From Candidatus Bipolaricaulia bacterium (GTDB taxonomy: Bacteria > Bipolaricaulota > Bipolaricaulia > JBHIAT01), in the NCBI GenBank assembly GCA_046758705.1, contig JBHIAT010000017.1:1-34145 (forward strand): 34,145 nt of DNA. Direction: 5' to 3'. The notes under the pieces were generated by a model. It was not told the origin of the DNA. It saw only the letters and a program-made list of their open reading frames with translations, and made no database searches. Position numbers and translations under genes: made by a program. The stretch's first letter is position 1, and each line of letters begins with the position of its first letter. Shown here piece by piece: positions 1,105 through 17,846 of this stretch.

Positions 1105-1181
1105 TGGTCGGGGAGACCCGATTTGAACGGGCGACCTCCTGCTCCCAAAGCAGGCGCGCTACCCAGCTGCGCCACTCCCCG
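1105..1181 (-). tRNA. tRNA-Pro (anticodon TGG), CCA encoded
   Basis: CGGGGAG...CTCCCCG-ACCA acceptor stem, anticodon arm CCTGC-TT-TGG-GA-GCAGG, T loop TTCAAAT, 77 nt. Confidence 0.97.
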
Positions 1182-7363: not shown

Positions 7364-9201
7364 AGCGGTTGCGAAAGTACCTCGTTATACTGCTGATCGT
7401 CGGGGCAGGCCTGACCAGCATCACCGCTGACGCGCTCGCGGGGTTCCGAATCGAGAGGTTCCACAGCGAAATTGCGATTGACGAGGACAGCTCGTTCACC
7501 GTGATCGAAGAGATCACCGTGGTATTCGATGCTCAGCATCACGGAATCTTCCGTGACATCCCGTTCCGTTACCGACGTGACACCGGAGAGAACTTTTCGG
7601 TGCGGATGGAAGTGCTCGAGGTCACCGATGAGCGGGGGAGGCCACGGCCGTACAAGGTGAGTCGAGTCGGCTCTAACAAACGGATTCGGATCGGGGATCC
7701 CAACGTCACCGTCACCGGCCGGCAGAGTTATGTAATCTACTACCGGGTTGCCCGCGCCCTCAACTACTTCGATTTCCACGATGAGTTCTACTGGAACGTC
7801 ACCGGCACCGGATGGCCTGTCCCAATCGGCCGAGCGTCGGCGATCATCACCTTCCCCAAGTCAGTTGAGGCGGTGCAGCTCAGGTGCTTCGCCGGAGCAT
7901 TCCAAAGTACAAGTGAGGCTTGTACGAAACGGATCATAGACGATCGCACGGTCGCCTTTGGGACGGCCGACCTTGGCTTTAACGAGGGGTTGACGATCGT
8001 CGTCGGGTTCGACAAGGGCGTCGTTACCCCACCGTCGTGGACCCAGGAGGCGGCGTGGTTCATCTCCGACAACTGGTATGTAGGGATCCCGCTCCTGACG
8101 TTTCTCGTCCTCCTCGGGCTTTGGTATCGGGAAGGCAAGGACCCGGAGCGTGGCACGATCGCCCCGCAGTTCCACCCACCGGCGGGCTTGACGCCAGCGG
8201 AGGTCGGCGTCATCGTCGATGAGCATGCAAACCTGCACGACATCTCGGCAACGATCATCGACCTGGCGATCAAAGGCTATCTGAAGATTAAGGAGATCCG
8301 GGACGACGATGAGGAGGATGGGGAAAGTGCCTGGGACCCATTGGAGCAGGAGATCGAGAGCAGCTCCCTGGGAGACAGGGAAAAGCGGGTACTGAAGTCG
8401 GTCGTCGGGGCGCGGATCAAGCGGCTCTTTAACCTGACGGCACCGATCGATTATCGGTTCGAAAAGCTCGAGGAACCTGGAAAAGACGAGCTCAACGAGT
8501 TCGAGAAGACGATCCTCAACGCGATCTTTGACGGTTCCAAGCGCAAAAAACTCTCGGATCTGAAGAATCAGTTCTACAAGGATCTGGCTCATATCAAAGA
8601 GGAACTCTACCTGACCGTGGTTGGCAAGGGGTACTTCACCAACGATCCCGACCGGGTGCGGAAACGCTACCGGGGCTTAGCGATCCTGGGGATATTCGCG
8701 GGGGTTGCCAGCGGGATCGCGTTCTCCTCGCTCTACCTGGGGGCCACCGTGTTCGTCTCTGGGTTGCTGATCCTGGCGTTCGCCCCGCTGATGCCCAAGA
8801 AAACGATCAGAGGCGGTCGGGCCAACCAGGAGATCCTCGGGCTGAAGGAGTACATCGCTCGAGCCGAGAAGGAGCGGATCGAGTTCCACAACGCTCCGGA
8901 GCGGACACCCGAGGTGTTCGAGCGGTTGCTGCCGTTCGCCATCGCTCTTGAGGTCTCGGATATTTGGGCAGAGCAGTTCAGGGATATCTACACCACTCCT
9001 CCGGACTGGTACGAGGGGCGCTGGGGCGGGTTCAACAGCTACTACTTCTATCGGTCGCTCACCGCGCTTAACTCCGATATGCAGCGGACGTTTGTCTCCT
9101 CGCCGAGCGGGAGTTCGAGCAGCGGCTGGAGCGGCGGCAGCGGGTTCAGCGGTGGATCGGTCGGCGGCGGCTTCGGAGGCGGTGGCGGCGGCAGCTGGTA
9201 G
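7360..9201 (+). CDS. DUF2207 family membrane protein
   Basis: Signal peptide, HGIFRDIP, DEFYWNVTGTGW, PPAGLTPAEVG, LLPFAIAL, C-terminal GGGFGGGGGGSW; usual lemA partner, ATGA overlap. Confidence 0.92.
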   Translation: MKRLRKYLVILLIVGAGLTSITADALAGFRIERFHSEIAIDEDSSFTVIEEITVVFDAQHHGIFRDIPFRYRRDTGENFSVRMEVLEVTDERGRPRPYKVSRVGSNKRIRIGDPNVTVTGRQSYVIYYRVARALNYFDFHDEFYWNVTGTGWPVPIGRASAIITFPKSVEAVQLRCFAGAFQSTSEACTKRIIDDRTVAFGTADLGFNEGLTIVVGFDKGVVTPPSWTQEAAWFISDNWYVGIPLLTFLVLLGLWYREGKDPERGTIAPQFHPPAGLTPAEVGVIVDEHANLHDISATIIDLAIKGYLKIKEIRDDDEEDGESAWDPLEQEIESSSLGDREKRVLKSVVGARIKRLFNLTAPIDYRFEKLEEPGKDELNEFEKTILNAIFDGSKRKKLSDLKNQFYKDLAHIKEELYLTVVGKGYFTNDPDRVRKRYRGLAILGIFAGVASGIAFSSLYLGATVFVSGLLILAFAPLMPKKTIRGGRANQEILGLKEYIARAEKERIEFHNAPERTPEVFERLLPFAIALEVSDIWAEQFRDIYTTPPDWYEGRWGGFNSYYFYRSLTALNSDMQRTFVSSPSGSSSSGWSGGSGFSGGSVGGGFGGGGGGSW

Positions 9202-9287
9202 GAGCAAACTCTTTCCTTTTCCTTGAAGTTGCTTCCAACAGGCCCACGGTATATTCTGAGAAAGATGTCCCCCTGAAGGAGGAAAAA

Positions 9288-10268
9288 ATGGAAAAGCAGG
9301 CTCTGGAGAAACGTATTTTGGGAAAGAGTGGTATCGCTGTGACCAGCATTGGGATTGGCCTGTGGGCCATGGGCGGTAACGAGTGGGGAGCTACCGACGA
9401 CCGGGAATCCCTCAATGCGATTCATGCCGCTTTAGATGCTGGGGTGAACTTCTTCGATACCGCCGACGTCTACGGCGTCGGTCACAGTGAAGAGCTGCTC
9501 GGCCAGGCGATGAAAGGGCGTCGCGACCGGTTTATCGTCGCCACCAAGATCGGCTGGCGGAACTTCGATGAAACGCGCAACCGGACTGCCTACGACACCG
9601 TCGACAAGCTGATTGCCGGTGTGGAGAGCGGTCTGCGTCGCCTAAACACCGACTACGTGGATATCATTCAGAGCCATATCAACTTCCGCGATCCCACCAT
9701 GGAGATCTTTTTGGAAGGTTTTCACAAGCTCCAGCGGGATGGCAAAGTGCGGGCCTACGGGGTCAGCACCAGTGACTTTGAGTACCTGAAGGCGTTCAAT
9801 GCCGACGGCAATTGTGCCACCCTGCAGATCGACTACAGCATCCTTAACCGGACGCCGGAGGCCGATATCTTCCCCTACTGTCAGGAGAACGACATCGGCG
9901 TCATCGTGCGGGGTCCGCTGGCGATGGGCATCCTCGCCGGCAAGTTCGGTCCCGATACGCGGTTTGGCGAAGGTGATTTCCGGCAGCGCTGGCATGACAA
10001 CCCGGAGGAGCACCAGATCTTCCTGGACGATCTGGCCAAGGTGGACAAGTTGCGTCCTCTGGCTCAGAATCGCACGCTGGCCCAACTGGCCCTGCAGTTT
10101 ACGTTGGCCCATCCGGCTGTCACCACGGTAATCCCAGGAGCCAAGACGGACAAACAACTGCAGGAGAACGTGGAGGCGGGACTGATTGCGTCGCTGAACT
10201 CTGGGGAGCTAGCAGAGATCGACACCATCACCCCGCCGAGCGGCGGTCGCAAGATCTGGCCGGCATGA
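9288..10268 (+). CDS. Aldo/keto reductase
   Basis: GVNFFDTADVYGVGHSEELLG, VATK, GKVRAYGVS, PLAMGILAGK, VIPGAK; SD AAGGAGG. Confidence 0.94.
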   Translation: MEKQALEKRILGKSGIAVTSIGIGLWAMGGNEWGATDDRESLNAIHAALDAGVNFFDTADVYGVGHSEELLGQAMKGRRDRFIVATKIGWRNFDETRNRTAYDTVDKLIAGVESGLRRLNTDYVDIIQSHINFRDPTMEIFLEGFHKLQRDGKVRAYGVSTSDFEYLKAFNADGNCATLQIDYSILNRTPEADIFPYCQENDIGVIVRGPLAMGILAGKFGPDTRFGEGDFRQRWHDNPEEHQIFLDDLAKVDKLRPLAQNRTLAQLALQFTLAHPAVTTVIPGAKTDKQLQENVEAGLIASLNSGELAEIDTITPPSGGRKIWPA

Positions 10269-10321
10269 CGATCAAGATTCTTTCACCGACCTGTTTGTAA
10301 GACGGAAGTAACGTTGTAGTA

Positions 10322-10567
10322 CTAACTTAGGGCACTTAGGTCAAAGACAGGGGTCTCTTCCTTCCTCGTCGGCTCTCTTGCTTCTCTAACCACTCGATCC
10401 ATCTCCTCTAGGATCTCTGCACTGAGATATTCTTCTCCGCATTGGTCGCACACTAACGCCTCGACATTCTCAAAGATGTAAAGCCGACCATTATGCCTCT
10501 CCTCATGTGTTATAGTCTTCTTTACCAAAGCCCCTCCGCATAAGGGACATAACCTTCTCTTCCCCAT
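10322..10567 (-). CDS. YgiT-type zinc finger protein (MqsA N-terminal-like, no HTH)
   Basis: CPLCGG...IFENVEALVCDQCGEEYL. Confidence 0.88.
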   Translation of the reverse strand: MGKRRLCPLCGGALVKKTITHEERHNGRLYIFENVEALVCDQCGEEYLSAEILEEMDRVVREAREPTRKEETPVFDLSALS

Positions 10568-10576
10568 TATCCGGGA

Positions 10577-10888
10577 TCACCTCCTCCGCGTCCAAGGATC
10601 GATCCATTCCTCTGGATCCATCCAATGTGCAGTAACGATGTATGCTTCCTCTCCGTCAAAGGAACAGGAGATATAGAGAGGCTCCCCTTCTCTAACAAAA
10701 CCCATGATCAAACACTTAGGATAGGGCTTATCCTGCTGATGCTCTTCCAAAATCTCCCCTTCCATGATGGCCTTCTCTATATCTTCCTTCTCTATGCCTC
10801 TTTCGATCATTCTCTTCCTCGCATGAGCTCTGAGATAGTACTTCTTTGCCCTAACTGCTTTCCTGATATCCTCAAGAGCTATAGACAT
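10577..10888 (-). CDS. DUF4258 family protein (putative RelE-like toxin)
   Basis: HARKRMIERGI...GEILEE...DKPYPKCLIMG...IVTAH...PEEW; lies upstream of a YgiT finger, the usual pairing. Confidence 0.88.
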   Translation of the reverse strand: MSIALEDIRKAVRAKKYYLRAHARKRMIERGIEKEDIEKAIMEGEILEEHQQDKPYPKCLIMGFVREGEPLYISCSFDGEEAYIVTAHWMDPEEWIDPWTRRR

Positions 10889-11079
10889 TTCTCGTCTCAG
10901 GAATAGTATAGTTGCTCAGGGTCATTACCACAACCTGATGTTGTCTGAGGACGACTAACAAAGAGGAGAGGTAAGACCCCCACAGGAGCTGCCGAGGATC
11001 ACTACGACAGCTGTAGTAGCAGCACGTCGCAGGTCGTGGTGAAAGAGATTTGTTTGATAAAAGTATGGAATGCAAGTTA

Positions 11080-14000
11080 TCAGACAGCTGCAGCTGTCCT
11101 CGACCGAAAGAGTTGGATGAACGTATCGCTTACGATATGGTCTTTGGTATCTGCCGCGTATTGTATCAACTGTTCGCGTAACGCCTGGGCATCTTCCAAT
11201 GGCATTAACACTGCCAAAAGGAAATATACTCCGCGGAAACGCAGATCGCTCAAGTATTCTTGCGGCCTGTTATTATCAGGTCCAAGGAACGTCTGTACGA
11301 TAAAGAATTCCCTGATCTTATCGTGCCGAAAATGCCATTCCTTGGTCAGATTCCCCTGTGCATCCAAGGCCTGTCGGATAACGACCATTTTATGTCGCTC
11401 CATGCATTGTAATTCTTTAAGGTATTCCTCCCCGCTCAAGGCTACTTCGTCCTTCAGCCGCATCTGAAATACTTTCTCCGAGAAGGAATCAAGTGGGAAT
11501 TCCTGGTTATTCACACGCTTGTAATCCGCAGCCATGATGTTGTATTGCTGTTCCTGCAGGTGAAAAAGGTCCGGATCTTGCTCGCGAGCCAACATATGCG
11601 CCACCACGGTCAGATCCATAGGGTTAGAAAGAATTCTCTTCGCCGAGGCAAGCGCCTCTTCTGGCTGCTGTTCATTTAACGCCTCAGAGAGATAGCTCAG
11701 GCAGGCCTGCTCGTAATCTGTCCCAGATACTGTGGCATCCTCGGGAAGGCTCTGTTCACGCGTGAGAAGAAAACGTTCAATCTGGTCCTGCGTGAGCGGC
11801 TGCATTATGTAGATTTTCGCTGTAGAGGGTGGCGTCCACTCCAGCGGTTGTGTGACCATGATGATATTTCCCTTAAAGTAACTCTCCACAAACTCAGTCA
11901 CCCTGGCTCGTGTGTCTGCCGTCACTTCGTTCAAACCATCAATGCAGATATCGATTGCCCTACTGTAAATCAGATTTCGGAGGAAATCAGGGTCCCTCGC
12001 CGGACCATGCAGCTTTGCCTGAATGGCTTCAATTACCCCTCTCGAACATTTCTCGGCGGGCAAATAAACCACAATACGCTTCGAGCGTTTCACCAGATGT
12101 CGGAGGAACATGGTTTTTCCAAGCCCCGAGTCCCCTTCGAGGACTATCTGCCCTTTGATCTTAGGGATCACTTCTCTGATAGGTTGGATGCACTCCGATG
12201 TCTTGATCTTAACTTTGGACTCTTCAAAGTAGGCTTGTGGATCGAAGCTTTCCAACGCGGCATCAGATAGTAGAGATTCCTTGAACGGAGCCAACAGCTT
12301 CAAACGCAGGTAGGGAACCCAAGTGAGCGCAAAGCCGACATAGCCAAGCCCAGTAATACGCCGTACCCACCGATTCCAAAAAAAGATAGCCTGGATCTGT
12401 GAGGATTTCGGGTAGATAAAGGTTAATAACAGCCAGAAAAGAGCGTGAGCAGGCCAAATTTTAAGCGCAATTTTACTTATGTCAGAGAACCATCGCTTTC
12501 TTTCGAGGGAAGAGATTGTGTTTTGAACGGGGACAGCATAGATAGACCCTGAAGATTTCAAATTGGACGCATGGCGCCGAAGAAGGGGAAGATCATCACG
12601 TTTCCACGTCACTGTACTGGCCACTATAGCTATCTGTTTTTCCAAGTCGTCATGCAATCTGGGAAGAGAGGTGCTTGCTTCCCAAGCTTTTTCAAAAACT
12701 TTCAAGTTATTGACGCCATCATCGTGCATGATGGTGTCTGGATAATTTTCTGGAATTCCAAGCCATTTAATGAGAATCTCCGCTCCTTCTTTGCCACCAC
12801 CCAAGAAATGGGCAAGGAATCGAAGCTCACCGACCCGCGATATATTCCCGTATACTGGACTCAAAATGTGAAGAATGCTTTTCAAATCCAATGGTCCCAT
12901 CGCAGTCAGCGCATCGATAACAGTAGTATCATAAACCGAAGATCCAAAGCCCCAAAATGTAGGTCGAAAGTCCGTAGGTCGAAAGTCCGAAAATACAGGT
13001 TCCATGGGAAAGGTGCTTGTAATTGTAACATCATTCAACAGATTCGCAATCCTTGGGGCTTGATCCTTGGCGATCTCTCCTATGATCCCCAGCGCTTGGG
13101 CAGCGGTAGCACGCACAAACCCATTTGGATCATTCAACAGGTTCGCGATCTTGGGGACCTGATCCTTGGCGGCCTCTCCCATGGTCCCCAATGCCTTGAC
13201 AGCGGCAGCGCGCACAGACGCATCCGGATCATTCAACAGGTTCGCGATCTTGGGGACCTGATCCTTGGCGGCCTCTCCTATGGCTCCCAACGCCTGGGCA
13301 GCGATAGCACGCACAGACGCATTTGGATCATTCAGCAGGTTCGCGATCTTGGGGACCTGATCCTCGGCGGCCTCTCCCATGATCCCCAACGCCTCTACAG
13401 CAGCAGCACGGACACCCCTAGCCGGGTCATTCAACAGGTCCACAAGCATTGGGGCTTGATCCTTGGCGGCCTCTCCCATGGCCCCCAGCACCCGAGTAGC
13501 AACAGCACGGACATCCTCATTCGAGTCATCTAACAGGTTCGCGATCTTGGGAGCCTGATCCTTGGCGGCCTCTCCCATGACCCCCAACGCCTTGACAGCG
13601 GCAGCACGGACATCTTCATTCGGGTCATCCAACAGATTCGCGATCTTGGGGACCTGATCCTCGGTGGCTGCTCCTATGGCTCCCAACGCCTTGACAGCGG
13701 CAGCACGGACATCCTCATCCGGGTCTTTTAACAGGTTCACAAGCTTGGGGGCCTGATCCTTGGCGGCCTCTCCTATAGCTCCCAATGCCTGGGCAGCGGT
13801 AGCACGCACATCCTCATCCGGGTCATCCAACAGGTTCGCGATCTTTAGGATCTGATCTTTGGTGACATCTCCCATGATCCCTAACGCTTCTACAGCGGCA
13901 GCACGGACATCCCTAGCTGGATCATCCAACAGATTCACAAGCTCTGGGACCTGATCCTTGATGGCCTCTCCCATGGCTCCCAATGCCTTGGCAGCGGCAG

Positions 14001-14667
14001 CACGCACAGACGCATTTGGATCATTCAACAGGTTCGCGATTTTGGGGACCTGGTCCTTGGCGGCCTCTCCCATGGCCCCTAGCGCTTCAGCAACGGCAGC
14101 ACGCACAGACGCATTTGGGTCATTTAACAGGTTCGCGATCTTGGGGACCTGATCCTTGGCGGCCTCTCCCATGGCTCCTAACGCCTTGGCAGCGGCAGCA
14201 CGCATAGACACATCCTCATTTAAGTCATTCAACAGGTCCACAAGCATTGGGGCTTGATCCTTGGCGGCCTCTCCCATGGCCCTCAACGCCTCGGCAGCGA
14301 CGAAACGGACAAGCCCAGGCTCATCCGGATCTTTCAATAGGTCCACAAGCATTGGGGCCTGATTCTTAGCAACCTCTCCCATGGCCCCCAGTGCCCTGAT
14401 AGCCGTAACACGAACATCCACATCCGGTATTTCTAGCATGTCGACAATTCTTTTTATGGGGATTGTGCCGAGAGATTTAAACTCCCTCAATTTATCCAAC
14501 GCCTTAGCTTGTACTTCGGGATTTGAATCCTCAAAAGCGGCCAAAGCACCATTGATTTTCCACGTTTCCGCCTCTGGTTTGGGCTCTGCGGTGTTGCCGA
14601 AGAGTGGGAAGAAAAGCACTGTCAAAAGAAAAGCGAGCAGCCAGTTAAATTTGGAATGCTTGGTCAT
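11080..14667 (-). CDS. Signal peptide + HEAT repeats + transmembrane segment + C-terminal NACHT/STAND-type NTPase (~1195 aa)
   Basis: Start reassigned to ATG 14667 (MTKHSKFNWLLAFLLTVLFFPLFGNTA, signal-like), which removes the overlap with the nuclease gene. About 14 HEAT repeats; TM IWPAHALFWLLLTFIYP; Walker A GDSGLGKT; Walker B ICIDGLNE; NPMDL; winged-helix motif FRHDKIREFF. Confidence 0.85.
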   Translation of the reverse strand: MTKHSKFNWLLAFLLTVLFFPLFGNTAEPKPEAETWKINGALAAFEDSNPEVQAKALDKLREFKSLGTIPIKRIVDMLEIPDVDVRVTAIRALGAMGEVAKNQAPMLVDLLKDPDEPGLVRFVAAEALRAMGEAAKDQAPMLVDLLNDLNEDVSMRAAAAKALGAMGEAAKDQVPKIANLLNDPNASVRAAVAEALGAMGEAAKDQVPKIANLLNDPNASVRAAAAKALGAMGEAIKDQVPELVNLLDDPARDVRAAAVEALGIMGDVTKDQILKIANLLDDPDEDVRATAAQALGAIGEAAKDQAPKLVNLLKDPDEDVRAAAVKALGAIGAATEDQVPKIANLLDDPNEDVRAAAVKALGVMGEAAKDQAPKIANLLDDSNEDVRAVATRVLGAMGEAAKDQAPMLVDLLNDPARGVRAAAVEALGIMGEAAEDQVPKIANLLNDPNASVRAIAAQALGAIGEAAKDQVPKIANLLNDPDASVRAAAVKALGTMGEAAKDQVPKIANLLNDPNGFVRATAAQALGIIGEIAKDQAPRIANLLNDVTITSTFPMEPVFSDFRPTDFRPTFWGFGSSVYDTTVIDALTAMGPLDLKSILHILSPVYGNISRVGELRFLAHFLGGGKEGAEILIKWLGIPENYPDTIMHDDGVNNLKVFEKAWEASTSLPRLHDDLEKQIAIVASTVTWKRDDLPLLRRHASNLKSSGSIYAVPVQNTISSLERKRWFSDISKIALKIWPAHALFWLLLTFIYPKSSQIQAIFFWNRWVRRITGLGYVGFALTWVPYLRLKLLAPFKESLLSDAALESFDPQAYFEESKVKIKTSECIQPIREVIPKIKGQIVLEGDSGLGKTMFLRHLVKRSKRIVVYLPAEKCSRGVIEAIQAKLHGPARDPDFLRNLIYSRAIDICIDGLNEVTADTRARVTEFVESYFKGNIIMVTQPLEWTPPSTAKIYIMQPLTQDQIERFLLTREQSLPEDATVSGTDYEQACLSYLSEALNEQQPEEALASAKRILSNPMDLTVVAHMLAREQDPDLFHLQEQQYNIMAADYKRVNNQEFPLDSFSEKVFQMRLKDEVALSGEEYLKELQCMERHKMVVIRQALDAQGNLTKEWHFRHDKIREFFIVQTFLGPDNNRPQEYLSDLRFRGVYFLLAVLMPLEDAQALREQLIQYAADTKDHIVSDTFIQLFRSRTAAAV
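12959..12988. repeat. Perfect 15-bp tandem duplication GTAGGTCGAAAGTCC x2
   Basis: Read directly; encodes DFRPT-DFRPT in frame. Confidence 0.9.
13030..14430 (-). repeat. Coding tandem array of ~14 units of 99 bp (33-aa HEAT repeats); boundaries approximate
   Basis: Recurrent GATCCTTGGCGGCCTCTCCCATGG and CAGGTTCGCGATCTTGGGGACCTG; consensus QVPKIANLLNDPNASVRAAAAKALGAMGEAAKD. Confidence 0.93.
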
Positions 14668-14740
14668 GTTCTTCGACTCTGCATGGGTTTGATAGATGCG
14701 CCAGTGACCACGATCCGATTTCTGCAGTGGTGATTCTGTA

Positions 14741-15706
14741 TTATTCAATGTTGTCTTCTTTGGAGTTGGCAGACTGTTCGATTTCAGAAGTGCTGGCTTT
14801 TGTTCGTACGGACACAAACTGCGTTCCAGATTGGGGATATTGATGAAGTTCAAGAGCAAATGTCTTACCCATGTGCTTAAACTCAAACTCAGCACTTTGA
14901 GCCACGATCTTGTTGTCATCCCGATAGACCCGCACGGTGGTTACAGGTTTCTTCTCGACTTCGATCCATAGCTCAGTGTACACTTCGATATATGCAATAT
15001 CTACGGCTCCAGATGTAGTTATCAATTGGAAGCAATCTTGCTCATTTGTAAAATCCAAATGAATAAGCCGTTTAACTTTGGAACCATTTGGCAAAACGTT
15101 GGAGTATAGTTTTTCGCGAGGAGCACATGCCCAGATGTCCATAAAGGATGCTGAGGTTCCATCCTTCTTTCTTCGAAAAATTGGCGCATTGATATCAAAA
15201 GATGGTTTGACCTTGGTAAGCACTTCGGGCGGAAGTTCAACTTTGACACTGTCTGGAAGTGGAAGATTAACTGATATGCGATCGAAATTTGCAGAATGTT
15301 TAAAATATGTTATTTTATTGCAAGTGAACCAGAGCACGATTTCATCAGGATCAACTTCTTCCAAAGTTCGTAGCTCAATGTTATTAGTAATCGCTATATT
15401 CCTCGCGCCAGACGTAAATCCTGTCGAGGACACAGCTACAGCTTTGTCTGCTTCAACATCTCTGCATTTCGATGCGAGCTGCTCTATCCAAGTTACATCT
15501 TCGGTTCCCTGGCGATCTCGACTCTCAATGATTACCAGGATCTCAGAGGAGCCTATCTGACTTCGAAGGGAGATGTCAACTTCCCGCCTCGATTTGGATT
15601 CTCTTCCTTGAATGTAGTCAGGTGAAGTGACCTGTATACCCTCTGGGCCCAGATGCTCTTCAAGCAGGGCGATCAATCTCTCTAGATCTCGACCTTTTCT
15701 TGTCAT
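14741..15706 (-). CDS. Mrr_cat-like PD-(D/E)xK restriction endonuclease domain plus uncharacterised ~200-aa C-terminal region
   Basis: KGRDLE, RREVDI, IIESRD, DVTWIEQL, AVAVSSTGFTSGA...NNIELR; SD AAGGAG. Confidence 0.82.
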   Translation of the reverse strand: MTRKGRDLERLIALLEEHLGPEGIQVTSPDYIQGRESKSRREVDISLRSQIGSSEILVIIESRDRQGTEDVTWIEQLASKCRDVEADKAVAVSSTGFTSGARNIAITNNIELRTLEEVDPDEIVLWFTCNKITYFKHSANFDRISVNLPLPDSVKVELPPEVLTKVKPSFDINAPIFRRKKDGTSASFMDIWACAPREKLYSNVLPNGSKVKRLIHLDFTNEQDCFQLITTSGAVDIAYIEVYTELWIEVEKKPVTTVRVYRDDNKIVAQSAEFEFKHMGKTFALELHQYPQSGTQFVSVRTKASTSEIEQSANSKEDNIE

Positions 15707-15736
15707 AAATCACATTCTCCTTCACGCTGGTCAAAA

Positions 15737-15892
15737 ACGATATAATATAACTCCCACATAGACGGATCTGTGAAGTTCATCTAACGATTAATGTCATTTC
15801 GTCACTACAATGTCAATATAGCATATTTACTGAGGAGGGTCAAGGCTCGCCCGTTCTCATAACTTTTAGTGGATATCGGGGAGTTATATCGT
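15737..15892. repeat. Inverted repeat pair (ATATAACTCCC 15745-15755 / GGGAGTTATAT 15879-15889) enclosing a promoter
   Basis: 11-bp perfect IR, extendable to TATnnGGGAGTTATAT and, allowing a 5-bp ATATA duplication in the left copy, to ACGATATAACTCCC. Confidence 0.7.
15815..15843 (-). promoter_or_regulatory. Sigma70-type promoter facing the nuclease-HEAT/NACHT genes
   Basis: TTGACC-17 bp-TATATT with extended -10 (TGc); a second TTGACA overlaps the -10. Confidence 0.65.
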
Positions 15893-15979
15893 GCTATAGA
15901 GACATGCATCCAACGATCGACCTATATCTGGAAGATGGAAATGGAAGTGAAGCTCTGCCGAGCAGTAGATCCTTCCTAA

Positions 15980-16023
15980 AGGTCATGGTCGGGGCGACCC
16001 CGTGGGTCGCCCCTCTATGACCT
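15980..16023 (-). terminator. GC-rich hairpin; terminator of the trk-oxidoreductase operon and/or REP-like element
   Basis: GGGGCGACCC-CGT-GGGTCGCCCC with outer AGGTCAT/ATGACCT arms, just after the stop at 16032. The minus strand has GTAG at the 5' foot and only a short T run. Confidence 0.6.
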
Positions 16024-16031
16024 CTACTTCA

Positions 16032-17846
16032 TTACTTCTCCGCCGACTCCGATCTATCTCCTTCCACAATCCGATCCGCCAGGGCACAGACCATGGCGAT
16101 CCCCTCCTCCCGCCTGATCCCTTCGTGACGGTCGAGCCGCTCGCGAAGCTCCCCTGAGATCAATCCATCGGCGTTAACTCCGTAAATGCTAGCGAGCTTC
16201 TCCAAGAAGGCGATCGCTTCCTCTTGGCTGATCGCCTCCTGGTCGACGAACAGGGCGAGATCATAAACGGACTTGATCCCCGGGGGCAGAGGGCGTAGCG
16301 CGTTGTTCAGCAGGTTGAGGAGGTAGCGCGGTGGCATCTCGGTCTCCAGTCTGAGGTTGTTATTGTAACCGCCGACGATCGACCCTCGCTTCCGCAGGCG
16401 GCGGATGCAGGGGTAAGTCCAATGATCGGCGTAAGGAGCGGAGATCTGGAACGGCTCCAGGTAGGCCCCCTGGGCGATCAGGAGCGCTTGGATCTGACGG
16501 ATCTCTTCCTGATCTTGAGCAAGTTTTCTGAAGTTCATCCCGTGCTGGACGCTGTAGGCAGCGGCGACTCCGGCCGCCTCACCCTCAGTCATCCCCACCG
16601 GAACCACTCGGACACTCCCCGCTGCCAATGCAGTGTAAGAGGCGGATCGGCCGACGACGAGCAGGTTGTCGACCCGCAACGGCACGAGCGACCGGAACGG
16701 GACGCTGTATTGAGCCGGAGTTCCGATGACGAACCCTCGTTCCTCGGGAATGGCCGGGTGGGTATCGATCGGATAGGACCCAATGGCGATTCGATCCCAG
16801 AAATCCCGGTTCTCGAGCACGTCGTTGACGGTCAATTGATACTCCCCGAGGATGTGTCGCGACTCCCGAACATATAGCTCGTCGGCGACCCCAATCAGAT
16901 AGGCGTTCTCAAACCCGGGCGCGTGCTCACGGAGGTAGACGATGATCCGCTCGACCTCTTGCTGTCCTCGGACCATCGCCTTCTGTCGCGAGGTGGGATC
17001 GAGCACGTCAACGTCGAAGATAAGGAGCGCGTTGATCAGGACGGAACCGTCTCGCTGTCTCCCAATGTTGAGGCCGCGCAGGCGCATCAACGGATCGCCC
17101 GGTCGGTAGTCGTTGATGAACTGCCCGTATCCCCAGGCTGAGGTAGCATCTGCCCCGGTCACCGGGTTTTTGTCGTTGTTCAGATACATCTGAATCGCTT
17201 CCCAGTCAACCCCGCCAACCTGGAAGACGAGCGTCGGGGCCATCGGCTGGCAGGAGAGGACCGAGATCTCGCAGATCTCCTCCCGCCCCACGGTATATGG
17301 AACGCCGCTTATTGCCGCCAGATCCGCATCCTCGGTCGCATCGATGAACCGGTCGGCGTAGACCGTCACCATTCCTCTTTCCCGGAGGATGAGCACACCT
17401 CGTAGGAGGTGCCCATCCTCACTGAGGATCGGTGCCACGACCTCGGTTCCGAGCATCAGGGTGAGATTTGGTTGCTTTGAGACGAGCTCCAGCAGCGCTG
17501 CTTCCGCCTCGGTCACGTCGAAGGAGGTCCTTCTCTCCAGTCGCTCGAACAACCATGCGAAGAGTCCTTGGGTGAGCAGCTGGTTCTCCGGTCCGTAGTT
17601 CATGTCGAAGCTGTTGAGTTTCGCCAAGGTGAGCACTCCACCCAGCTTCGGGCGGGATTCGATTAACAGGACGTGAGCGCCGTTTCGCGCCGCCGCCACC
17701 GCCGCCGCGACCCCCTCCGGCCCACCCCCGATGACGACCACCTCAAAGCGGTCCCGTTCCTCATCGGCAAGCCCTACAAGGGAGATCACCAGTATGAACC
17801 CCATCAAAGCGATGACTAGGCCCATGAATCGCTTCATGATCGACAC
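16032..17846 (-). CDS. FAD-dependent oxidoreductase with N-terminal signal/TM and C-terminal SLH-like motif
   Basis: VVVIGGGPEGVAAAVAAARNG, FIDATEDADLA, YVRESRHILG, YPIDTH, VPFRSLVP; DHWTYPCIRRLRKRGSIVGGY resembles an S-layer homology repeat. Confidence 0.85.
   Translation of the reverse strand: MSIMKRFMGLVIALMGFILVISLVGLADEERDRFEVVVIGGGPEGVAAAVAAARNGAHVLLIESRPKLGGVLTLAKLNSFDMNYGPENQLLTQGLFAWLFERLERRTSFDVTEAEAALLELVSKQPNLTLMLGTEVVAPILSEDGHLLRGVLILRERGMVTVYADRFIDATEDADLAAISGVPYTVGREEICEISVLSCQPMAPTLVFQVGGVDWEAIQMYLNNDKNPVTGADATSAWGYGQFINDYRPGDPLMRLRGLNIGRQRDGSVLINALLIFDVDVLDPTSRQKAMVRGQQEVERIIVYLREHAPGFENAYLIGVADELYVRESRHILGEYQLTVNDVLENRDFWDRIAIGSYPIDTHPAIPEERGFVIGTPAQYSVPFRSLVPLRVDNLLVVGRSASYTALAAGSVRVVPVGMTEGEAAGVAAAYSVQHGMNFRKLAQDQEEIRQIQALLIAQGAYLEPFQISAPYADHWTYPCIRRLRKRGSIVGGYNNNLRLETEMPPRYLLNLLNNALRPLPPGIKSVYDLALFVDQEAISQEEAIAFLEKLASIYGVNADGLISGELRERLDRHEGIRREEGIAMVCALADRIVEGDRSESAEK

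Follow-up and report, generated by a model that had tools for sequence, protein, structure and literature searches.

Results

A HEAT-TM-NACHT gene beside an Mrr-type nuclease gene

The window analysed here is a stretch of 34,145 nucleotides (nt) from a Candidatus Bipolaricaulia bacterium (GenBank assembly GCA_046758705.1, contig JBHIAT010000017.1, positions 1 to 34,145). It contains a pair of genes on the minus strand, a nuclease gene at 15706..14741 (321 amino acids (aa), P0002) and, downstream of it, a gene at 14667..11080 (1195 aa, P0001) that encodes a HEAT-repeat protein with a predicted transmembrane (TM) helix and a C-terminal nucleoside triphosphatase (NTPase) module of the NACHT type. 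The intergenic gap is 73 nt (14668-14740). GC content is 0.43-0.50 over about 10500-12500 and 14500-16000, compared with about 0.60 in the flanks, and is 0.56-0.58 in the HEAT array itself. The coordinates and base composition therefore confirm a first-pass annotation of this DNA, which had described two co-oriented genes 73 nt apart in an AT-richer island.

From its N-terminus, P0001 consists of a putative signal peptide, the HEAT array, a juxtamembrane helical domain, the predicted TM helix and the NACHT module, which closes the chain. Only 78 residues follow the FRHDK motif of this module, leaving no room for a further effector domain, as had been noted in the first-pass annotation.

The C-terminal module has the fold and motifs of a NACHT

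The NACHT module (NBD-HD1-WHD-HD2, residues 781-1195, 11083..12327 on the minus strand) is predicted to be cytoplasmic. The four motifs picked out in the first-pass annotation, GDSGLGKT, ICIDGLNE, NPMDL and FRHDKIREFF, are all present in P0001. The first of these is the Walker A motif (12112-12135); it fits the pattern GxxxxGK[ST], and its two glycines and its lysine are invariant in alignments of 69 and of 140 sequences. In NACHT proteins the Walker B motif has the consensus hhhhDG(L/F)DE, and is followed by a sensor-1-like strand, T/S-x-(R/Q)-P. P0001 has DICIDGLNE (11926-11952) followed by IIMVTQP, corresponding to a Walker B motif and a sensor-1-like strand, with N in place of D. Of the residues in these two elements, D321 and Q351 do not vary, the same holds for N324 in the 69-sequence alignment, and G322, L323 and E325 are near-invariant. 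The motif of the WHD, FRHDK, lies at 11317-11331.

Residues 590-1195 were modelled with AlphaFold2 (AF2) from the 69-sequence alignment, giving a pLDDT of 95.2 and a pTM of 0.80. In VIA structure comparisons the model was closest to NLRC4 (4kxf; Z 21.7, root-mean-square deviation (rmsd) 4.0, 373 residues aligned, model residues 192-606), with NLRP3 at Z of about 20 and NOD2 at 19.5. Scores for other STAND proteins were lower (NRC1 NB-ARC 12.9, 6mfv 12.1, MalT 11.4 and Apaf-1 11.3). By VIA Z score the module is thus closer to solved NACHT structures than to other STAND clades. The best Foldseek match was also NLRC4 4kxf (E 2.9e-8), and NLRP3 NACHT constructs were matched with a TMt of 0.55. Nearly all the Foldseek matches listed were NACHT modules of animal NLRs, and the other three were ORC/Cdc6 proteins. 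Neighbours of the module in the ESM Atlas belonged to NACHT, NPHP3_N and nSTAND clusters. These structural comparisons uphold the earlier description of the NTPase as NACHT-type. The best VIA fits were to ADP-bound or closed forms, at an rmsd of about 4, whereas activated NLRC4 and NLRP3 fitted only at an rmsd of 13-16. The model therefore appears to represent an autoinhibited state.

Two results of profile searches tell against the assignment. The Pfam NACHT family (PF05729) matched below its threshold (E 3.8e-4, 20.8-20.9 bits against a gathering cut-off of 26.7), and PADLOC and NCBIfam gave matches in the HEAT region together with weak Avs4 matches (E 0.008 and 0.025) confined to 60 residues at the P-loop. 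No bNACHT or Avs model among these curated defence models matched P0001 beyond the P-loop. The C-terminal 416 residues alone matched Pfam AAA_22 (6.7e-6). Among homologues of the NTPase alone, Pfam NACHT was found at E<=0.01 in 17 of 18, the best at 2.1e-5, and was sub-threshold as far as shown. A search of solved structures with the single NTPase sequence gave nothing meaningful; a profile of 18 NTPase sequences retrieved NLRC4 at no better than E 0.096, and a profile that included the HEAT columns returned only alphaRep/HEAT proteins. In PHROGs the NTPase gave a P-loop match only. Judged by the modelled fold and by its motifs, the module is a NACHT, although it does not reach the curated Pfam threshold.

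A signal-peptide-like start, a HEAT array and one long membrane helix

The open frame of the P0001 gene extends upstream to 14919. We consider the ATG at 14667 to be the better start, because the N-termini of homologues fall near the hydrophobic segment. In a database copy of the protein (P0003, 1222 aa) translation begins instead at a TTG at 14748, which overlaps the nuclease stop by 8 nt (14741-14750); if this were the real start, it would suggest translational coupling of the two genes.

Counted from the ATG, residues 5-29 and 730-752 form hydrophobic segments, and residues 771-787 a weaker one. Residues 1-27 (14587..14667, minus strand) resemble a signal peptide, with a basic n-region (K3, H4 and K6), a hydrophobic core at residues 9-23, and GNTA before EP. 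The same n/h/c-like layout is seen at the N-termini of homologues from Entotheonellia, Competibacteraceae and Nostocales. This segment is followed by the putative exported sensor, a HEAT array of the PBS-lyase/alphaRep type with about 14 repeats of 33-35 aa (12898..14550, minus strand). Pfam detected HEAT_2 (E 6e-92) and HEAT (1.1e-82), and a profile search of the Protein Data Bank (PDB) matched the array to alphaRep proteins. At the DNA level, 12.8-14 copies of a unit of 99-105 nt, with a 99-nt period, occupy 13026-14441. The repeat array and the hydrophobic segments of the first-pass annotation were thus recovered.

The juxtamembrane domain (residues 595-710; 12538..12885, minus strand) is conserved in the family, and is modelled by AF2 as six helices with pLDDT >92. 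No Pfam family was found at E<=10 in the 220 residues ahead of the C-terminal 416. A continuous 44-residue helix follows (residues 711-754, model helix 122-165; 12406..12537, minus strand) and coincides with the hydropathy peak. Its predicted membrane-spanning part is residues 737-753, IWPAHALFWLLLTFIYP, and the conserved pattern of the membrane helix in the family is H..FW..LIF.YP. Next comes a membrane-proximal module (12307..12408, minus strand), made up of residues 754-770, KSSQIQAIFFWNRWVRR, which are basic and aromatic, and residues 771-787, ITGLGYVGFALTWVPYL, the second hydrophobic stretch. The family consensus after the membrane helix, KSPQVQAIFFWNPWVRR, is nearly invariant; the invariant or near-invariant residues of the module are Q, F, F, W, N, W, R, G, G, Y, G, W and P. 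The 754-770 stretch has a mean net charge of +3.16 over the 69 sequences, the highest of the region, and was for that reason assigned to the cytoplasmic side. The second hydrophobic stretch has the consensus GLGYVG..LTWVPFL. In the AF2 model it does not form one TM helix and is divided among short helices (model residues 177-183, 187-194 and 196-214), and its C-terminal part falls inside the range that aligns to NLR structures.

To place the N-terminal segment in the wider family, 122 of 150 representatives were considered, namely those with an initial M and no fewer than 100 residues ahead of the matched region. A hydrophobic 12-mer (KD>=2) was present within the first 56 aa in 92 of them. 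A small-x-small motif was found behind the hydrophobic segment in 93 of 105 proteins (the representatives with the segment, nine homologues and the window's own protein), with a mean K+R content of the n-region of 2.92. In three relatives the HEAT array is replaced by other domains, each time behind an N-terminal hydrophobic segment: STN and GspD-N0 in P0339, GspD-N0 in P0340, and PDZ_2 and N0 in P0316. These three come from 31 representatives hand-picked for odd lengths, which are not a random sample; 20 of the 31 have HEAT families and 8 have no ectodomain family. The replacement of HEAT by STN, GspD-N0 and PDZ domains supports an exported sensor.

We infer a single-pass topology from the conserved n/h/c-like start, the charge bias, the STN/N0/PDZ relatives and the presence of one long helix. 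The HEAT sensor is most likely exported, in which case the order of the domains is inverted relative to Avs and bNACHT proteins. The first-pass annotation had proposed an inverted STAND protein with an exported sensor that activates the nuclease in trans. Its first part is supported by the fold, the signal-like N-terminus, the STN/N0/PDZ relatives and the charge; its second part, the nuclease as effector, was not sustained, as described below.

A large family of putative receptors with a variable ectodomain and optional outputs

A search with residues 590-1195 found 721 proteins at 90% clustering, those listed being 55-70% identical to P0001; the nearest listed homologue is P0004 (70%). For most of those listed the annotation goes no further than 'HEAT repeat' or 'PBS lyase'; they come from Nostocales, with others from Competibacteraceae and from one Entotheonellia metagenome-assembled genome. 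An exhaustive search gave 902 clusters at 50% identity with E<=1e-3, mostly Nostocales, and 493 with E<=1e-30. The family is therefore large and uncharacterised, as the first-pass annotation had allowed when it cautioned that similar proteins might already exist in databases.

Relatives were found at 336 loci in GTDB species genomes. The best 80 of these loci comprise 74 cyanobacterial, 4 Competibacter(aceae), 1 planctomycetotal (Planctomycetota) and 1 deltaproteobacterial locus. Presence is patchy: a sample of 81 genomes from one cyanobacterial family includes 34 with a relative, at 1-4 places per genome, and several copies are fragments. Within the window's phylum the receptor was found in 1 of 184 genomes, the window's own. 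Four plasmid records carry relatives, and one such gene lies between insertion sequence (IS) elements. The Rhizobium leguminosarum plasmid pRL10 (locus L167, 4865-9079) encodes a distant relative, a hypothetical protein of 1404 aa, 35% identical over TM-NACHT, that is flanked by IS21 and IS110 transposases, with a small overlapping gene after it. Elsewhere, 18 of the 80 loci have members of a family of open reading frames (ORFs) of about 285 aa, 22 copies in all, lying immediately before the receptor gene and in the reverse orientation to it (for example, at 7545-8402 on the minus strand of locus L006).

Ectodomain length ranges from about 0 to 1222 aa (98 representatives). In the same 8 full-length homologues the ectodomain is 31-50% identical to that of the window's protein, as against 56-70% for the remainder.

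In 141 representatives the match runs to the end of the core. A C-terminal extension of at least 60 aa follows in 24 of them and is absent from the other 117. P0296 ends in a TIR_2 domain (53 bits, cut-off 28). P0333, P0373 and P0352 end in EAD11 (52, 61 and 39 bits respectively, cut-off 26), and P0379 and P0386 look like further EAD11 members by eye. P0353 has a borderline, cyclase-like Guanylate_cyc match (21.7 bits, cut-off 21.9). P0373 and P0352 also have an N-terminal hydrophobic segment, so a sensor that appears to be exported and a cytoplasmic adaptor can occur in one polypeptide. In P0252, P0269, P0277 and P0278 the first NACHT is followed by another P-loop module, about 550 residues long, that matches nSTAND1 weakly (E 2.6e-4). 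Long-form frames of 1934-1962 aa were present in genomes G184 and G254, where the first NACHT appears split in the genome matches (query 33-178 and 190-397). Other C-terminal modules without a Pfam match recur at about 175 aa and about 210 aa (P0253, P0270 and P0271; P0282, P0348, P0356, P0380, P0387 and P0389). These are candidate new output or adaptor domains.

We favour an immune or conflict role for the family, because prokaryotic conflict systems are typically marked by TIR and EAD domains. The patchy presence, the variable sensor and the position of the window's gene in a low-GC island near a toxin-antitoxin-like pair point the same way as the TIR and EAD11 fusions. Alternatively, the family may consist of non-immune transmembrane signalling receptors or regulators, concerned with the envelope, exopolysaccharide or cell-cell contacts, in which the NACHT would serve as a nucleotide-dependent switch, with a cyclase-like output in some relatives. 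Several observations speak for this alternative. The cytoplasmic part is unusually conserved, with linker, TM and NACHT 56-70% identical across phyla and a nearly invariant membrane module. A downstream neighbour is shared by 20 of 80 loci and marks a syntenic site in part of Nostoc; cross-phylum conservation and synteny of this kind fit a conserved cellular function as well as they fit immunity. There is no recognisable effector in most members (the 117 of 141 noted above), one member has the borderline cyclase match, and the STN/N0 domains of some relatives are typical of envelope signalling. Defence genes are also few in the neighbourhood: within 2.5 kb, at 77 loci, PADLOC matched 13 of 148 neighbour-cluster representatives at E<=1e-8, several of them generic. 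The TIR and EAD11 fusions tell against a non-immune receptor, as do the patchy distribution with fragments, the apparent horizontal acquisition in the present genome, the hypervariable repeat sensor, and the copies on plasmids and between IS elements. We consider the non-immune alternative unlikely, while giving it real weight.

The neighbouring nuclease appears to be independent of the receptor

The nuclease gene (14741..15706, minus strand) encodes a stand-alone protein. Pfam Mrr_cat matched residues 5-116 of P0002 (E 2.5e-5, 24.8 bits, cut-off 21), and no Pfam family covers residues 120-321, in agreement with the Mrr-type N-terminal domain and unrecognised C-terminal domain of the first-pass annotation. 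The AF2 model of P0002 had a pLDDT of 86. By structure superposition the nuclease domain comprises residues 1-129 (15320-15706). In VIA it was closest to AF1548 (Z 13.4, rmsd 3.2, 110 residues aligned), followed by the Can2 nuclease domain (12.5), VC1899 (12.4) and NucS (11.2); Foldseek matched the MspJI catalytic domain (E 4e-4). On this model, P0002 has a PD-(D/E)xK fold. The complete catalytic motif of such enzymes is D...(E/Q)xK. In a 30-sequence alignment of the P0002 family E16, D30, E42, D44, E61, R63 and K80 are invariant, and the third motif reads E-C/S-R (E-x-R) and not E-x-K. K80 might substitute for the missing lysine.

The remainder of P0002 (residues 130-321) is a beta-rich domain without a fold assignment. 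The VIA and Foldseek matches of the whole-protein model included no convincing solved fold for it, and all VIA rows with Z>=8 were restricted to residues 1-130 except 2czr (Z 8.0, rmsd 8.3). In the ESM Atlas, similarity to this domain (TM 0.54) was found in the C-terminal part of other clusters with Mrr_cat. PHROGs gave no match for P0002. The P0002 family spans many phyla (160 matches), the nearest homologue being P0123 (69%).

The genome of the window contains a second copy of the nuclease on another contig (C8:15379-16695 of G000; 8380-9696 in locus L166), which is 60% identical, 438 aa long, and carries an extra C-terminal extension of about 120 aa. This copy lies in another stretch of lower GC content, adjoining a SEC-C-motif protein and a ParE toxin, with a RAMA-domain protein further on. 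No STAND gene is near it, and the genome has no second receptor.

Two surveys were made of linkage between the families. A P0002 homologue was found in 0 of 80 receptor-family genome loci (tblastn E<=1, flanks up to 10 kb), and a HEAT/NACHT relative in 0 of 80 metagenome nuclease loci (E<=0.01, 580 kb in total). The commonest neighbour cluster of the nuclease occurred in 7 of 80 loci. Around the receptor, the most widespread neighbour cluster (27 of 80) is a low-complexity ORF, and the next (20 of 80) reflects the Nostoc synteny mentioned above. Prediction of a complex between the NACHT (794-1195) and the nuclease gave 0.31, 0.00 and 0.01 in separate runs, against a mark of 0.32, and says nothing either way.

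These results bear on the proposal of the first-pass annotation that the pair forms a two-gene defence system, in which an exported HEAT sensor would act through the cytoplasmic NACHT to activate the adjacent nuclease in trans. The arrangement of the genes is in keeping with such a system: they are co-oriented and closely spaced (or overlapping by 8 nt, if the TTG at 14748 starts the receptor), and the 73-nt spacing, with a single promoter-like site upstream and a terminator-like site downstream, is compatible with co-transcription. In addition, the receptor itself lacks an effector domain, the ligand-activated effector nucleases Can2 and Card1 are among the nearest folds of the P0002 nuclease domain (Z 8.7-12.5), and the best homologues of the two proteins are similarly distant. 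The reach of the surveys also leaves this proposal some room, in that 36 of the 80 nuclease loci are at least 5 kb long and half are shorter than 4.7 kb, and the contigs of the closest homologues, P0004 (70%) and P0123 (69%), lay outside the comparison, which leaves a chance of a pairing specific to this lineage. Against it stand the zero counts in both directions, the second nuclease copy without a second receptor, the lack of a conserved partner in either family, and the fusion of family outputs (TIR, EAD11) to the C-terminus, none of them a nuclease. We therefore regard a two-gene system as very unlikely. Activation of the nuclease in trans found no backing in the neighbourhood survey that the first-pass annotation had called for, and its own caveat that the pairing may be incidental agrees with the reciprocal absence of linkage.

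Given this absence, the solitary paralogue and the lack of a conserved neighbour, the pair is best explained as two separate cargo genes of one island. The nuclease seems to be a chance neighbour of the receptor and not its partner, and P0002 is probably an independent, solitary Type IV-like restriction enzyme, whose annotation should not assign it to the receptor system.

Context of the island

The flanks of the island are ordinary chromosomal genes, encoding LemA, DUF2207 and aldo-keto reductase proteins on one side, and an FAD oxidoreductase, TrkH and TrkA on the other. The receptor gene appears to have been horizontally acquired within this low-GC island. Flanking direct repeats were looked for at the island boundaries and none were found; the sole tRNA gene of the window (1105-1181) is 9 kb from the island. 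Downstream of the receptor gene, in the same island, is a toxin-antitoxin-like pair (10322-10888, minus strand), consisting of a DUF4258 protein (103 aa, E 6e-22) and an MqsA/YgiT-type zinc-finger protein (81 aa, E 7e-5, below its cut-off).

The promoter-like site is at 15815..15843 (minus strand), upstream of the nuclease gene, and reads TTGACC, 17 nt, TATATT, with TG. It is a consensus match only, and 11 such sites were observed in the region where 5.4 are expected. The terminator-like hairpin at 10964..10981 (minus strand), about 100 nt downstream of the receptor gene, is likewise a consensus match only.

The assembly was checked against three DNA runs from a single study, one of which may be the source of this DNA; these were the only runs found for the stretch, and no RNA run was among them. 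Contigs from the runs bridged 9000-13156, 14253-16087 and 14353-16268, with depth equal to that of the flanks, and so crossed both island junctions and the junction between nuclease and receptor. The adjacency of the two genes is not an assembly artefact. The HEAT array was broken into many short contigs at 13156-14253 in all three runs, and the number of repeats in the assembled window may therefore be inexact.

Small genomes in the phylum had raised the idea of an archaeal host, but this was rejected, since the genome contains EF-Ts and no ribosomal L15e was found in it; the genome is bacterial. Its taxonomic order comprises this genome alone, which makes a search at the order level uninformative.

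Discussion

The observations described above divide our confidence about evenly between one reading and all others: that P0001 is a single-chain, membrane-spanning, NLR-like receptor, and that the adjoining nuclease is independent of it. The membrane-spanning part of this reading depends on how the hydrophobic segments are placed. Were residues 771-787 to cross it, the HEAT array and the NACHT would share one side, the cytoplasmic one. In that case the two hydrophobic stretches ahead of the NACHT would form a membrane hairpin, with the N-terminal segment as a third anchor, and the protein would be a membrane-tethered NLR that senses the cytosol. Some observations favour such a same-side topology: HEAT arrays are usually cytoplasmic, the two stretches, about 36 residues apart, are conserved, the second passes the hydropathy threshold (KD 1.6) in about half of the representatives, and the region before the membrane helix is mildly basic too (net +1.16). 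Against an exported sensor, moreover, 30 of 122 M-start representatives, including the TIR-bearing P0296, are without a strong N-terminal hydrophobic segment (their starts may be mis-called). We consider a same-side topology very unlikely all the same: the basic n-region and small-x-small motif are typical of a cleaved N-in signal, the loop between the stretches is the most basic of the region and so is expected to be cytoplasmic and not periplasmic, the STN, N0 and PDZ domains in the equivalent position are periplasmic domains, and AF2 breaks 771-787 into three short helices with pLDDT >90.

Taking P0001 as a single-pass receptor, the following mechanism can be envisaged. A Sec-type signal peptide would export the variable HEAT solenoid and the conserved helical stalk domain to the periplasm, and the one long helix would cross the inner membrane. 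The aromatic and basic membrane-proximal module would couple this helix to the cytoplasmic NACHT, which is closed and autoinhibited in the model. Binding of an extracytoplasmic or envelope-associated ligand by the HEAT array might then be relayed through the helix and the membrane-proximal module, releasing autoinhibition and allowing nucleotide exchange and oligomerisation of the NACHT at the membrane. In relatives the output could be provided by the C-terminal TIR, the EAD11 adaptor, the cyclase-like domain or the second STAND module. In the minimal form, represented by P0001 and most of the family, it is most likely that the clustered membrane module would damage the membrane or that an unlinked effector would be recruited.

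More tentatively, and with confidence that falls short of even, we propose that the family is a transmembrane counterpart of NLR immune receptors, in which a HEAT antenna, exported and fast-varying, would detect invaders at the envelope stage, before or during entry, and send a signal across the inner membrane that triggers NACHT oligomerisation and a membrane-level or recruited effector. Candidate ligands of such an antenna are phage tail or ejection proteins, predatory bacteria, conjugative pili and foreign polymers. To our knowledge, all characterised STAND/NLR immune receptors, bacterial and eukaryotic, sense ligands in the compartment of their NTPase. If the proposal is correct, a sensor outside the membrane would represent a different wiring of the NLR, a Toll-like or receptor-kinase layout on an NLR engine, and a mode of pattern recognition not yet demonstrated for any STAND protein. 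The family is common in genetically tractable filamentous cyanobacteria, so its topology, ligand and output are directly testable.

A full-text literature search, in the text accessible to it, returned no description of a family with signal peptide (SP), HEAT, TM and NACHT in this order; supplementary tables, such as Table S1 of Kibby et al., may list it. The nearest known systems each share part of the arrangement. The sections available of a survey of prokaryotic conflict systems propose that EAD adaptors recruit effectors by homotypic contacts, treat TIR and EAD domains as marks of such systems, and suggest that membrane-associated versions intercept invaders during cell entry (Kaur et al. 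2020 eLife, PMC7159879). The present family resembles the EAD systems described there in that some relatives of P0001 end in EAD11 and in its enrichment in filamentous cyanobacteria. It differs in that P0001 itself has no EAD, and the SP-HEAT-TM-NACHT architecture does not appear in those sections.

bNACHT proteins, as set out in the accessible part of their description, have N-terminal effectors, a central NACHT, and C-terminal sensors and TM regions (Kibby et al., bioRxiv 10.1101/2022.07.19.500537). On that description P0001 is similar in having a STAND NTPase of the NACHT type, a superstructure-forming repeat (HEAT) as sensor, and short or absent extra domains. It differs in its order, signal peptide, HEAT, TM, NACHT, and in that the optional outputs of its relatives are C-terminal. 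Avs proteins are presented, in the portion available of a recent survey, as cytoplasmic, ordered effector-NTPase-sensor, and sensing phage proteins inside the cell, with TM listed there only as a label for a type of effector (Nature 2026, PMC13581612). So described, they share with P0001 a STAND NTPase and a repeat sensor, and members of its family carry outputs of the immune type (TIR, EAD). The order of P0001 is not effector-NTPase-sensor, and Avs4 models match only its P-loop.

P0002 can be compared with Mrr/Type IV and AF1548-like nucleases, with which it shares the Mrr_cat match above cut-off, the fold match and a solitary occurrence without a methylase partner. It departs from them in its N-terminal nuclease domain followed by a beta-rich domain, and in its E-C/S-R third motif.

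The solved structures closest to the receptor model are those of animal NLRs. The whole NBD-HD1-WHD-HD2 unit of the model superposes on NLRC4 (4kxf), NLRP3 (7alv) and NOD2 (5irn), with Z of 19.5-21.7 over 360-373 residues and an rmsd of 3.8-4.8. The resemblance extends to the closed, ADP-type conformation and to the Walker A, Walker B and WHD histidine motifs found in P0001. Sequence identity is only 10-14%, however, and animal NLRs are cytosolic proteins with C-terminal leucine-rich repeats and an N-terminal CARD or PYD, whereas the sensor of P0001 is N-terminal, is built of HEAT repeats, and apparently lies across the membrane from the NACHT.

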